From an uncultured Gemmatimonadales bacterium (lineage in GTDB: Bacteria; Gemmatimonadota; Gemmatimonadetes; JACCXV01; JAHWKZ01), in contig CAZUIY010000341.1 of assembly GCA_964619975.1 (NCBI GenBank), positions 1,393 to 65,392 of the forward strand: 64,000 nt of DNA, given 5' to 3'. The position numbers were made by a program, and so were the translations under genes. Positions 13,565-15,775 of the stretch are shown here, in pieces; the stretch's first letter is position 1, and every line of letters begins with the position of its first letter. The notes beneath the pieces were generated by a model. It ran no database searches. It was not told the origin of the DNA and worked only from the letters and a program-made list of their open reading frames with translations.

Positions 13565-13945
13565 ATGGCTCCGATTGAAGGCGAAATGCGATTCTTGCGC
13601 CAGCGTCTAGACAGGCAGGAAGACGAGTTGACCGCACTTCGCGAGCTGCCTGCGGCCGTCGCCGGACTCAGTCGCGGACTGACCGCCGTGGAGGAGGGCC
13701 AGAGGAGGATCGAGCGACGCCTGGACGTCGCCGACGAAGAGGAGGTTCGTCGCGTCGTCGCGCTTCGCACGGACCTTCGGCAGATGAACCAGAAGATAGA
13801 CGATCGGTTCGACCGCGTCGACCTTGCCCACGAGCGCGCCAGGGGCGTGGACTGGAAGACGGTGTTGGCGGTGGTTACGGGCATTACGGTCCCACTTTTC
13901 GTGGCGATCGTGGGAGCGATCGTCGCGTTCGGTGCGCCGGGGTGA
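13565..13945 (+). CDS. small coiled-coil protein with C-terminal transmembrane helix (lysis-associated or holin-like candidate)
   Basis: 126 aa; N-terminal charged helix; C-terminal TM segment VLAVVTGITVPLFVAIVGAIVAF. Confidence 0.4.
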   Translation: MAPIEGEMRFLRQRLDRQEDELTALRELPAAVAGLSRGLTAVEEGQRRIERRLDVADEEEVRRVVALRTDLRQMNQKIDDRFDRVDLAHERARGVDWKTVLAVVTGITVPLFVAIVGAIVAFGAPG

Positions 13946-14604
13946 GCGAGCAGGTCGTCATCGCGCGGGGAACGCTCGCCGCCTGCGCCGCGGGGCTGGG
14001 GGTGGTGCTGGCGGTGCTCGCCTACTTCGCCATCTCGGGCTTCAGCGCCGCGAGCGACGCCAGGGAGCAGATATCGCGCGACGTCGCGCGCCTTGATCGC
14101 CTGGAGGCGCCCCTGACGCGGGTCGAGCTACGGCAGCTGCTTCGCGATCTACTGTCATCTATCGAACCCGCAGAGCGAAGCAAGAGGCTCAAGCGGGCGC
14201 TGCGGCGGATCGAGCGGGGCCGGGTGCGTCCGTCGGGCTCCGGTTTCCGCGGCAGCCTGCCGCGCAGCCCACTGGTCGATCGAGGCCGCGCCGCGCCTCC
14301 GCCCCGCCCCGTCCCGCCCCGCGAGCGCGCCGGCCCCGACCGACCCTCGGCGACCCCCCGCCGCGCGCCGGCCCCTCAGCGGGCAACTCCGCCCGCCCCT
14401 CCATCGACTCGGGCTCCCGCCCCGCCGCCCCCCGCCCCGCCCGTGCCGCGCGCACCCGCGCCATCGCCCGTCGGACCGCCGCCCGCCCCGCCCGCGCCCT
14501 CCGACCCGCGGCTGCTGCCCGACCTGCCGCTGCCGAACCTTCCCGATATCCCGCTGCTGCCGGACCTCGGCATCCGGGGAAAGATGGCTGAATCACAGAG
14601 ATAG
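13942..14604 (+). CDS. membrane protein with N-terminal TM helix and Pro-rich C-terminal tail (holin or spanin-like candidate)
   Basis: 220 aa; TM segment LAACAAGLGVVLAVLAYFAISGF; long PAPP low-complexity tail; sits directly upstream of the endolysin. Confidence 0.4.
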   Translation: MSEQVVIARGTLAACAAGLGVVLAVLAYFAISGFSAASDAREQISRDVARLDRLEAPLTRVELRQLLRDLLSSIEPAERSKRLKRALRRIERGRVRPSGSGFRGSLPRSPLVDRGRAAPPPRPVPPRERAGPDRPSATPRRAPAPQRATPPAPPSTRAPAPPPPAPPVPRAPAPSPVGPPPAPPAPSDPRLLPDLPLPNLPDIPLLPDLGIRGKMAESQR

Positions 14605-14641
14605 CCTGCGCGGGCAGCGATCCTACTACTGAGGAGAAGGC

Positions 14642-15775
14642 ATGAACAGGGACAAGCTCGCGCGGTGGATAGCCACCATCGCGGCGGTCCTGGCGGCGCT
14701 CGGAGTGACGATCAGCATCGTCGACACCGACGGCGACGGGAGCCCCGATCGGGCAGACATCACGTTTAAGGTCAACCAGCAGCCCGACGACGGCGCGAGG
14801 TCGATCGAGGTGACGGTGCCGGCGCCGCTGGCGGAGCAGGCGGCGAGGAGTACCGAGGGTGACCTTCGCGACGAGCGGCCACCGGAGGCCGTGGAGGCGG
14901 TGCCCGAGCAACTTCGCTCCGCGGAGCAGAAGCAGGACGAGATACGGCGCGAGCAGGAACCGCTACCCACCGCCGGAGCGACGGCGTCGATCGACGGATG
15001 CGTGACGCGGTTCGTCCGCAACCAGTCGTCGCGCAACGGCGTCCGTCCGCAGCACCAGACGCTCCACTACACGGTCAGCACGAACCGGCCGGGGTGGGAC
15101 GACGTGTGGGCCATCGTCAACTACTTCAACGGTCCGAGCGGGGCGAGCTCGAACTTCGTCATCGACGCGGAGGGTCACTGCGCCTACATCGTCCCCATCG
15201 AGTCGAAGCCCTGGACGCAGGCCGCCGCGAACCCGTTCGCGATCAGCTACGAGATCATCGCTTACGGGAACGAGCAGGTGTACCTAGAGGAGGCGGGTTA
15301 CGAAAAGCTGCGCCACGTGATGCAGCAGGTCAGCGCTCGCACCGGAATCCCGATGAGGCGCGGGGCGACCAGCGGGTGCACCCCCACGAAGACGGGGATC
15401 GTGCAGCACTACGACTACGGCATCTGCGGCGGCGGCCACCACGACATCAGGCCCTTCAGCGTCGATCAGGTCATTCAGATCGTCGCTTCGGGCGGGGCGT
15501 CTTCGCTGCTGTCGAGGCTCACGGAGCCGGAGCAGAAGATCGTACGACGGCGTTGCGCGCACTGGTACAAGCATCAGCGCGCTCGCGGCACGGCCAGGCG
15601 GACGCAGCTGCGCTACAGCAGGCATTGGCGTGCCCGGGCGGCGGCGCAGAAGCGAACGCTGGACGCCAGGCATCGAAGGGGTCGTTCCTGGAAGAGGCTG
15701 GACAGCGGGATCAGGCGCAAGAGCATGGCGCGCGCGGAGCGCATGAAGAAGGCGGACCGAAAGGCGCTCTGCTAG
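14642..15775 (+). CDS. endolysin: N-acetylmuramoyl-L-alanine amidase (amidase_2/PGRP fold) with N-terminal signal-anchor TM helix and polycationic C-terminal tail
   Basis: Amidase_2-like core (HYTVSTNRPGWDDVWAIVNYFNGPSGASSNFVIDAEGHCAYIVP ... GIVQHYDYGICGGGHHD). N-terminal hydrophobic helix WIATIAAVLAALGVTISIV. The last about 75 aa are very Arg/Lys rich. Confidence 0.8.
   Translation: MNRDKLARWIATIAAVLAALGVTISIVDTDGDGSPDRADITFKVNQQPDDGARSIEVTVPAPLAEQAARSTEGDLRDERPPEAVEAVPEQLRSAEQKQDEIRREQEPLPTAGATASIDGCVTRFVRNQSSRNGVRPQHQTLHYTVSTNRPGWDDVWAIVNYFNGPSGASSNFVIDAEGHCAYIVPIESKPWTQAAANPFAISYEIIAYGNEQVYLEEAGYEKLRHVMQQVSARTGIPMRRGATSGCTPTKTGIVQHYDYGICGGGHHDIRPFSVDQVIQIVASGGASSLLSRLTEPEQKIVRRRCAHWYKHQRARGTARRTQLRYSRHWRARAAAQKRTLDARHRRGRSWKRLDSGIRRKSMARAERMKKADRKALC

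Follow-up and report, generated by a model that had tools for sequence, protein, structure and literature searches.

Exported endolysins are exemplified by Lys44 of the Oenococcus phage fOg44, whose N-terminal Sec signal takes the enzyme into the wall compartment before lysis and whose timing is set by holin-mediated depolarization (PMC6116005). Control of such enzymes by the proton-motive force (PMF) is an established model, as reviewed in the same source. Signal-anchor-release (SAR) endolysins, among them P1 Lyz, R21 of phage 21, and gp45 of phiKMV, instead bear a single N-terminal transmembrane (TM) segment and conserved cysteines and have no large-hole holin nearby. Here we describe a lysis cassette at positions 13565-15775 of a 64,000-nucleotide stretch of contig CAZUIY010000341.1 (the window, meaning the whole stretch of DNA that was analyzed). 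The cassette belongs to a novel siphovirus-type phage and comprises three genes, gpA, gpB, and gpC (Table 1), the last encoding a predicted amidase. In its logic, the system follows a theme already known from exported endolysins. What separates it from all described examples is the union of four elements (a tether formed by a TM segment or a lipid, an acidic spacer, an amidase rich in disulfides, and a basic helical domain), the accompanying proteins gpA and gpB, and the probable host lineage. Our full reading, whose chances we place slightly above even, is that of an exported and tethered amidase with a basic targeting domain, triggered by gpA and gpB in a Solirubrobacterales host; within it, the arrangement of the genes, the amidase assignment and fold, the conserved three-part plan, the cysteine patterns, the predicted folding of the tail, and the link to a host lineage are shown by the analysis, and we infer the export route, a membrane tether, the binding partner of the tail, and the functions of gpA and gpB.

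The catalytic assignment of gpC is the firmest part of this picture. Its start codon is preceded by a strong Shine-Dalgarno sequence (GAGGAGAAGG), and the original prediction of an Amidase_2 endolysin was borne out, with residues 135-258 matching Pfam Amidase_2 (PF01510; E=2.5e-10, 41.2 bits against a cut-off of 26) and the protein also matching PHROG endolysin families. Across 119 family members, H142, E187, E204, H256, H266, and D268 are invariant. We take these residues to be the zinc/catalytic set; their spacing resembles that in AmpD and AmiE, and the roles are assumed from AmpD, AmiE, and T7 lysozyme. The AlphaFold2 model of gpC (predicted local distance difference test, pLDDT, 89.4; predicted template-modeling score, pTM, 0.76) retrieved only Amidase_2 enzymes as structural relatives, Foldseek returning a probability of 1.0 for AmiA (4knk, E=1e-6), AmpD, AmiE, and the phage lysins LysCS, PlyP100, Ts2631, and Ph2119. 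By sequence and model, gpC is predicted to act as a zinc N-acetylmuramoyl-L-alanine amidase with a PGRP/T7-lysozyme-like fold.

Among phages, the nearest enzymes are the Lysin A proteins of actinophages. Viral-model matches to gpC are to Lysin A of Gordonia, Mycobacterium, Arthrobacter, Propionibacterium, and Rothia phages, and the closest catalytic domains in cultured phages (Gordonia, Mycobacterium, Arthrobacter, and Curtobacterium) match only in the core, at 27-31% identity (tblastn). The catalytic domain of gpC is a remote Amidase_2 relative of these proteins. Unlike gpC, Lysin A is a cytoplasmic, multi-domain enzyme that joins a peptidase and an amidase or glycosidase to a wall-binding domain, and its matches stop short of the N-terminal segment and tail of gpC (query-normalized template-modeling score <=0.38, query coverage <=42%). 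Neither of these two parts occurs in any cultured-phage match, and a PDB sequence search with the gpC family profile gave no match even at E<=10.

A search of 5.8 billion protein clusters retrieved more than 200 gpC relatives of 320-400 amino acids (aa), nearly all of them unnamed metagenomic proteins. All 108 relatives that were parsed share one plan, in which a hydrophobic N-terminus is followed by an acidic spacer of ~77 aa ending in LPTAGA, the amidase domain, and a basic C-terminal extension. The N-terminal hydrophobic export or anchor segment foreseen for the enzyme is therefore common to the parsed family. In the gpC model, the spacer forms a small beta-sheet and helices and closes with the nearly invariant LPTAGA. 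We considered and dismissed this motif as a sortase signal, because it departs from LPxTG and precedes the catalytic domain. The basic extension has a median length of 41 aa, a maximum of 84 aa, and a Lys plus Arg (K+R) fraction of 0.28 when measured from 32 residues after GGH.D, and within this range the gpC of the window stands toward the upper limit in both length and charge.

Several features of the family point to a location outside the cytoplasm. In 109 of the 119 sequences, no cysteine precedes residue 110; beyond that position, C120 and C180 are invariant, while C246 and C262 are either both present (104/119) or both absent (15/119) and never occur singly. Exactly two cysteines follow residue 272 in 98 sequences and four do so in 16, so that the number is 2 or 4 in 114/119. 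Even, co-varying cysteines are a signature of disulfide-bonded extracytoplasmic proteins, and Actinobacteria oxidize their exported proteins. Directly after the single hydrophobic segment of gpC stands DTDGDGSPDRAD, a DxDxDG-type motif kept in the closest relatives only, which we take to be a calcium-binding loop of extracellular proteins of the thrombospondin type-3-like kind. Two relatives, P0069 and P0071, carry a lipobox signal (LTGC, IAGC) in place of the TM segment, and P0064 possibly does so too (LFAC). A lipoprotein endolysin, as P0069 and P0071 imply, would be unusual. Because of the paired cysteines, the DxDxDG motif, and the lipobox variants, we consider gpC to be an exported, extracytoplasmic, and probably membrane-tethered enzyme.

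Whether the N-terminal segment is retained as an anchor or removed is the more delicate question. Stable tethering to the outer face of the membrane is favored, if only narrowly, because a protein whose TM segment is exchanged for a lipid anchor stays where it was, whereas one whose cleaved signal is exchanged in this way would not. The competing possibility, to which we give real though lesser weight, is that the segment is a Sec signal removed by signal peptidase I, leaving a soluble Lys44-type endolysin restrained only by the membrane potential; Lys44 itself is the precedent for cleaved export (PMC6116005). Certain features of gpC weigh against tethering in this way. Its N-terminus has a positively charged n-region, an h-region, and candidate cleavage sites after A-L-G (before V) and after T-I-S (before I). 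In the AlphaFold2 model, the hydrophobic stretch is interrupted at G21 and residues 22-27 join the small beta-sheet, so that the helix would keep only ~12 hydrophobic residues, and the small residues A-L-G just before this strand form a pattern that fits a cleavable Sec signal. Closest relatives likewise have small residues at -3/-1 (ALG, LGG, LAG, VAG, ALS), followed by a conserved alternation of hydrophobic and Ser/Thr residues. Against cleavage, the uncharged stretch has a median length of 22 residues, enough for a TM segment, some relatives lack a usable site (P0097, for example, has Pro at +1 of the only plausible one), and residues 1-30 of the gpC model reach a pLDDT of only 72-77. The lipobox variants moreover imply that a tethered enzyme can function, and perhaps that it must be tethered to do so.

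A different fate for a retained segment would be that of a true SAR endolysin, in which the TM segment keeps gpC inactive, exits the membrane upon depolarization, and allows the enzyme to refold as in P1 Lyz and phage 21 R. The single N-terminal TM segment, with 47% Gly/Ala/Ser/Thr, would suit such a mechanism, as would the lack of a multi-TM holin adjoining gpC, which would fit a pinholin-type partner, and the conserved cysteines could in principle serve a P1 Lyz-like disulfide switch. We nevertheless regard this mechanism as very improbable. The Gly/Ala/Ser/Thr content is not diagnostic in this Ala-rich proteome, gpA reaching 43% and gpB 59% in their own segments, and the cysteines of gpC come in even, co-varying pairs that leave no spare regulatory cysteine in the TM segment. 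SAR domains abut or join the catalytic fold and must leave the membrane, whereas a spacer of ~80 residues sets the gpC segment outside the catalytic fold, and the lipid anchor that replaces it in P0069 and P0071 could not undergo SAR-type release. The structural prerequisite of the SAR mechanism, a part for the transmembrane domain (TMD) in refolding of the catalytic domain, is thus lacking in gpC. The SAR lysins known to us are from phages of mostly Gram-negative hosts and are lysozymes rather than Amidase_2 enzymes. With Lys44, the tethered gpC that we favor would share the N-terminal Sec signal, arrival in the wall compartment before lysis, and timing by depolarization; it differs in being an amidase rather than a muramidase with a cleaved signal peptide, in having lipobox variants that point to a tether, and in possessing an acidic spacer of ~80 aa, three putative disulfides, and a basic helical domain that is novel. 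Beyond the general lysin logic, the two are not related in sequence.

The C-terminal domain is what sets gpC apart most visibly. The original prediction described ~75 terminal residues with more than 40% Arg/Lys, and the extreme basicity stands although the figure does not. The last 75 residues contain 28 K+R (37.3%), the richest 75-aa stretch contains 29 (38.7%), and 43% is reached only when His is counted. Among 10,638 windows of 75 aa drawn from 48 predicted proteins of the window (mean K+R fraction 0.125, standard deviation 0.055), the tail ranks first in both K+R and net charge (+25). It is conserved as protein (tblastn E=4e-29 to L008, the locus of the closest gpC relative), and T294, E297, R304, C305, L322, S326, W349, G356, R358, R359, and A363 are invariant or nearly so (alignment A3, in which L322 and W349 of the gpC numbering appear as L323 and W350). 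Given this protein-level conservation and the invariant positions, the tail is real coding sequence and not an Arg-rich artifact of a GC-rich frame.

The models portray the tail as a folded unit. Residues 295-376 form four helices in the full model (pLDDT 94-98), and residues 285-377 modeled alone from ten aligned sequences gave a pLDDT of 91.3 and a pTM of 0.81. Cys305 and Cys377 mark the two ends of the domain, and the shorter tails of other subfamilies retain two cysteines placed to staple a helical hairpin. The tail is accordingly predicted from the models to be a compact, autonomously folding helical bundle rather than a loose polycation, and a Cys305-Cys377 disulfide, suggested by conservation, probably staples it. 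With an Eisenberg mean hydrophobicity of -0.7, 19% hydrophobic residues, and helix moments of 0.26-0.35, the domain is too hydrophilic for a membrane-inserting peptide and is unlike the amphipathic membrane-active peptides used as references. The isolated tail found no fold match in the PDB beyond generic helical bundles (best E=3.9). No Pfam match outside Amidase_2 was obtained in gpC at E<=0.1, and no profile or fold match linked the tail to known wall-binding modules (LysM, SH3b, PG_binding_1, CW_7, choline-binding, and others). When searched on other catalytic domains, the tail profile met one fragment only, and shuffling of the exact module was not demonstrable.

What such a tail does depends on the envelope of the host. 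When 185,579 species were scanned, each represented by a single genome, gpC relatives occurred at seven loci, six of which lie in Solirubrobacterales (labeled Solirubrobacterales, Solirubrobacteraceae, or Patulibacter); one of the six is a prophage carried on a 578-kb contig of Patulibacter brassicae, an isolate. The 669-aa tail protein encoded in the window is 38% identical to one in a metagenome-assembled genome (MAG) of Solirubrobacterales, and the window's GC content of 72% agrees with such a host. The host is most probably a member of Solirubrobacterales (class Thermoleophilia, Actinomycetota), an order of Gram-positive bacteria with meso-diaminopimelic acid (meso-DAP) A1-gamma peptidoglycan and no mycolic acids (PMC3035278). 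Two points weigh on the other side, namely that the host assignment of this phage is indirect and that the seventh relative sits in a MAG labeled Steroidobacteraceae. That contig is probably mis-binned, because it is 23.9 kb long, has 72.8% GC, and is phage-like with a matching cassette layout.

This host bears directly on the role first proposed for the tail, that of a flexible polycation by which the lysin crosses or destabilizes an outer lipid layer, either the outer membrane found in Gram-negatives or a mycolate layer. The tail is indeed the most basic segment in the window, the Steroidobacteraceae label of one relative is that of a Gammaproteobacterial family, and natural and engineered cationic extensions do help lysins through outer membranes (for example, PMC4161244). 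The proposal nevertheless loses its basis, because the inferred host order is Gram-positive and mycolate-free, and it is not supported. Genomic relatives of gpC are almost only from Solirubrobacterales, an isolate prophage included; the models predict a folded tail, in which paired cysteines are conserved; the helices of the tail are of low hydrophobicity with modest hydrophobic moments; and the viral models closest in structure to gpC are those of actinophage Lysin A. We now judge an outer-layer role to be highly unlikely. The accompanying statement that no LysB-like gene is present was confirmed, as none of the 46 window open reading frames (ORFs) scanned encodes an esterase, a cutinase, a LysB-like protein, or a second peptidoglycan hydrolase; the absence of LysB is expected in Solirubrobacterales, which have no mycolic acids. 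Described lysins with cationic ends (the Thermus amidases Ts2631 and Ph2119, Acinetobacter LysAB2 and PlyF307, and the Artilysins) resemble gpC in joining a catalytic domain to an Arg/Lys-rich extension. Their extensions span ~10-40 aa, are unstructured or form a single amphipathic helix, and act on outer membranes, whereas the gpC tail has ~90 aa, a predicted four-helix fold, paired cysteines, a very hydrophilic composition, and a probable monoderm host. A polycationic lysin end alone does not, then, indicate a Gram-negative or mycolate-bearing host.

In place of the outer-layer role, we infer that the tail is a targeting module that binds polyanions or the cell wall and replaces a classical wall-binding domain. 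Two considerations count against this assignment: it draws on position, predicted fold, and charge, with no homology to a known binding domain, and the papers that were found describe no anionic wall polymers in Solirubrobacterales. A further use of the charge would be a latency clamp, in which the +25 domain binds anionic membrane lipids or lipoglycans and holds the catalytic domain off the peptidoglycan until depolarization or disruption. An enzyme exported before lysis needs some restraint (PMC6116005), anionic phosphatidylinositol is the main polar lipid reported for Conexibacter (PMC3035278), and the family couples an acidic spacer (mean net charge -5) with a basic tail (mean net charge +14, measured from 20 residues after GGH.D). 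The charges of the N-terminal region and the tail show no significant anticorrelation across the family (rho=-0.12, p=0.22), a result that speaks against the clamp and on which we also rejected the idea that the spacer neutralizes the tail. The clamp is unlikely in our estimate, and a further argument for targeting comes from lysins of two other loci, L011 and L012, which are signal-less and cytoplasmic, need no extracellular clamp, and are polycationic as well.

L011 and L012 are prophage-like loci on contigs of 624 kb and 155 kb, respectively. Their unrelated lysins (L011 7090-7707, L011 7704-8180, and L012 7777-8472) contain segments of 39-42% K+R, two at the C-terminus and one at the N-terminus. 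One is a 205-aa protein with ~40% K+R over its last ~75 residues, one is a Phage_lysozyme protein (E=7.5e-35) with a terminal stretch of 42% K+R, and one is a 231-aa protein with 42% K+R over its first 50 residues; two of the three have no Pfam match at all. Homology between these segments and the gpC tail was not significant (best blastp E=0.002 without composition correction; phmmer E>=0.03), and we treat their likeness as convergence in composition rather than shared ancestry. The recurrence of cationic modules at either end of unrelated lysins points to a shared property of the host envelope.

The two genes preceding gpC encode small membrane proteins with the topologies originally predicted from the sequence. 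Hydropathy and composition confirmed three plus-strand ORFs, with a C-terminal TM segment in gpA and an N-terminal TM segment followed by a proline-rich region in gpB. The only hydrophobic segment of gpA is followed by three residues and preceded by ~95 charged, helical residues predicted to be cytoplasmic. In gpB, the only hydrophobic segment leads into a conserved helical ectodomain with an ASDARE..RLDRLE.P motif, a basic stretch, and the proline-rich region, the last of which is predicted to be extracytoplasmic; residues 101-200 contain 38 prolines. The GTG start of gpB overlaps the gpA stop codon (GTGA), and gpB is translationally coupled to gpA. Three gpA relatives appeared in a word-indexed search, and a profile search of 1.84 billion representatives gave 43 at E<1e-3, mostly of ~80-185 aa with a few long repeat proteins. 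The C-terminal TM segment, with the motif DW.TVLAVV.G..VP...AII, was present in all 14 gpA relatives that were read and is the best-conserved part of the family. Neither gpA nor gpB has a holin or other family match in Pfam or PHROGs, and a weak, sub-threshold "Syntaxin" match of one gpA homolog (E=0.014) and the JGI label "MlaD" were set aside as coiled-coil noise.

Placement argues for a role of these proteins in lysis. The interpretation of the locus as a lysis cassette was upheld by its position directly after the tail genes and by the related loci, where, in 10 of 11 cassettes, the amidase is immediately preceded by small single-pass membrane proteins, one or two in number and often coiled-coil. 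L011 and L012 have a gpA homolog in the equivalent slot followed by an overlapping gpB homolog (tblastn E~1e-12; alignment A5) that keeps the N-terminal TM segment, the ASDARE..RLDRLE.P motif, and the proline-rich end. In both loci, the pair precedes lysins different from gpC, which are followed by multi-TM holin-like genes and tiny TM genes. Because it precedes different lysins, the gpA/gpB pair is a portable two-gene module that is not bound to one lysin type. By their size, their TMD, and their adjacency to the endolysin, gpA and gpB would suit a holin role. No classical multi-TM holin lies beside gpC in the window, the other small TM ORFs being far off in the early region, so gpA is the best candidate for a holin-like timing or depolarizing protein. 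If extended, the proline-rich part of gpB (~100 residues) would be long enough to span a Gram-positive wall.

Small proteins of similar design are known from actinophages. LysF1b of cluster F1 mycobacteriophages and the D29 holin with its coiled-coil tail resemble gpA and gpB in being small, in having one TMD and a charged or coiled part, and in lying beside the lysin, and actinophage cassettes that encode several holin-like proteins of the single-TMD kind have been described (PMC13056207). LysF1b has an N-terminal TMD and an N-out/C-in orientation, the reverse of gpA with its C-terminal TM segment and N-in orientation. The proline-rich ectodomain of ~100 aa distinguishes gpB from LysF1b-type proteins, and there is no sequence similarity to these proteins for gpA or gpB. 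A two-component spanin was also considered for the pair and rejected, since neither protein has a lipobox, the coiled part of gpA is cytoplasmic, and the inferred host order is Gram-positive.

The coexistence of the gpA/gpB pair with separate multi-TM holin-like genes in L011 and L012 weighs against a holin role. It would also suit the view that gpA and gpB are not lysis proteins at all, being superinfection-exclusion or envelope-modifying factors that merely lie between tail and lysis genes. The two proteins are without any family annotation, the holin-like genes of L011 and L012 come after the lysins, and L008 has no TM protein upstream of its amidase. Such an outcome appears unlikely to us, as the pair keeps its place after tail genes and before lysins in three phage lineages whose lysins differ, nearly all related cassettes have single-TM coiled-coil proteins at the equivalent position ahead of the amidase, and lysis cassettes with more than one single-TMD holin-like protein are known from actinophages (PMC13056207; PMC9671378).

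Other upstream proteins of the related cassettes echo the architecture of gpB. In two of the 11, the second upstream protein consists of an N-terminal TM segment and a collagen-like rod; these are L003 4559-5284 and L010 4107-4712, both with collagen-like Gly-X-Y repeats (Pfam Collagen E=1.4e-17 in L010). Extended rods on a membrane anchor, to which the proline-rich gpB would be analogous, seem to be a recurring element of these cassettes. L003 additionally has an ORF at ~5200-5778, directly 5' of the amidase, with a Sec signal peptide (…LTLAAPAGA, cleaved before Q) and an HEWGH zinc-peptidase motif, which may be a second secreted lytic enzyme.

Taken together, these features suggest the following course of events. 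Late in infection, gpC would pass through Sec by means of its N-terminal segment, fold with disulfide bonds, and be held on the outer face of the membrane, where it would stay tethered rather than undergo SAR-style release. Its basic domain may bind polyanionic wall material such as secondary wall polymers or lipoglycans. The enzyme would be inactive while the membrane is energized, as are Lys44 and other exported endolysins (PMC6116005). At a programmed time, gpA, together with gpB as a putative wall-spanning partner, would collapse the PMF, and the amidase could then strip stem peptides from the meso-DAP peptidoglycan. A bolder version, which we think improbable, holds that phages of Thermoleophilia use an undescribed lysis system made up, first, of a pre-exported, disulfide-stabilized amidase that is tethered through a membrane segment or a lipid and targeted by a new class of small, extremely basic helical domains, whose like seems to have evolved convergently on unrelated lysins of this phage group, and, second, of a gpA/gpB two-protein module. 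If so, the tail-anchored, coiled-coil gpA and the TonB-like, proline-rich gpB would form a trans-envelope trigger or a device for disruption after the peptidoglycan step, and would be either a counterpart of spanins in a host without an outer membrane or a sign of an unrecognized outer layer.

No cultured phage of Solirubrobacterales was found among 50,697 phage records or in a literature search, and the cassette offers a first look at lysis by phages of these bacteria, which are abundant in soil. The C-terminal domain of the gpC family is a new candidate envelope-binding module (~40-90 aa, basic, helical, with paired cysteines), with a possible use in labeling or targeting cells of Thermoleophilia. 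An endolysin family with interchangeable TM and lipoprotein anchors bears on the latency of exported endolysins, and gpA/gpB is a rare conserved membrane-protein pair that accompanies different lysins.

Table 1. Features of the lysis cassette, with positions in the 64,000-nucleotide window
Feature	Positions	Strand	Basis
gpA, 126 aa, tail-anchored membrane protein	13565-13945	+	ORF, hydropathy
gpA transmembrane segment, residues ~98-123	13856-13933	+	Kyte-Doolittle, alignment A4, family sequences
gpB, 220 aa, type-II membrane protein	13942-14604	+	ORF, hydropathy, homologs in L011/L012
gpB transmembrane segment, residues ~10-34	13969-14043	+	hydropathy
gpB proline-rich region, residues ~115-210, ~38% Pro	14284-14571	+	composition; low-period CCCGC-type DNA repeats
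gpC, 377 aa, predicted N-acetylmuramoyl-L-alanine amidase (endolysin), probably exported	14642-15775	+	Pfam, PHROG, AlphaFold2, Foldseek
gpC N-terminal hydrophobic segment, residues 9-27, WIATIAAVLAALGVTISIV, putative Sec signal-anchor or signal peptide	14666-14722	+	hydropathy
gpC DxDxDGxxDxxD motif, residues 28-39, DTDGDGSPDRAD	14723-14758	+	read from sequence
gpC acidic N-terminal spacer, residues 28-110, net charge -11, isoelectric point 4.2	14723-14971	+	composition, model
gpC Amidase_2 catalytic domain, residues ~111-284	14972-15493	+	invariant columns, cysteine statistics, fold matches
gpC C-terminal basic helical domain (predicted), residues 285-377, net charge +25, isoelectric point 12	15494-15772	+	models, alignment A3, charge

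The surroundings of the cassette are those of a phage genome with almost all genes on the plus strand. Upstream lie a 1,903-aa tape-measure-like protein (3784-9495) and large tail proteins (9495-11558 and 11551-13560), and downstream of gpA-gpB-gpC follow RecT (15953-17224) and a PD-(D/E)XK exonuclease (17267-18628; Pfam/PHROG). The lysis genes thereby occupy a slot between tape-measure/tail genes and RecT/exonuclease, and an equivalent slot is found in L003, L004, L008-L010, L013, and L014. Other genes in the window encode Ku, Dam and Dcm methylases, a DUF5131 protein, and an HNH nuclease; the gene of the large terminase begins there too. On the basis of this gene content, the entire window is phage DNA. 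No relative at the DNA level was detected among the phage records (blastn). A terminator after gpC was rejected, as the hairpin does not surpass those of shuffled sequence (z=-0.72) and a pattern scan also gave no relevant match.

The stretch 11551-13945, comprising the gene of the 669-aa tail protein and gpA, has a GC content of 60-65% and a GC content at third codon positions (GC3) of 0.71-0.79, clearly below the ~72% and ~0.9 of the remaining window. This difference suggests a recently exchanged mosaic block reaching from the distal tail or receptor-binding gene through the start of the lysis cassette. Very few proteins in 1-13560 and in most of 18600-63000 have a PHROG or Pfam match, and of the structural proteins scanned only one matched PHROGs, weakly and in a family that has no assigned function; this phage stands very far from those described so far.

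Further genes of the window merit brief mention. A protein with a Ku70/Ku80 beta-barrel domain is encoded at 24329-25363 (Pfam Ku, E=3.7e-10). Ku genes are carried by the mycobacteriophages Omega and Corndog, and a phage-encoded Ku fits an actinobacterial host. The same phage encodes a D12-class N6-adenine methyltransferase (22483-23430) and a C-5 cytosine methylase of 692 aa (27309-29387), both probably serving anti-restriction functions. At 19797-19868 on the minus strand, ARAGORN reported a tRNA-like element with an undetermined two-base anticodon, probably a false positive because it lies inside, and antisense to, a high-GC3 ORF (19506-20024). A 272-aa protein (39277-40095) unites a weak match to sigma-70 region 2 with an FtsK gamma (winged-helix DNA-binding) domain, an unusual combination for a phage regulator. 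Near the end of the window, an HNH endonuclease (60520-61266) stands shortly 5' of the start of the large terminase (63417-63998), which runs off the window end. This order is typical of HNH-assisted cos packaging, and the arrangement shows that the window covers the greater part of a genome of about 72 kb with circular gene order.

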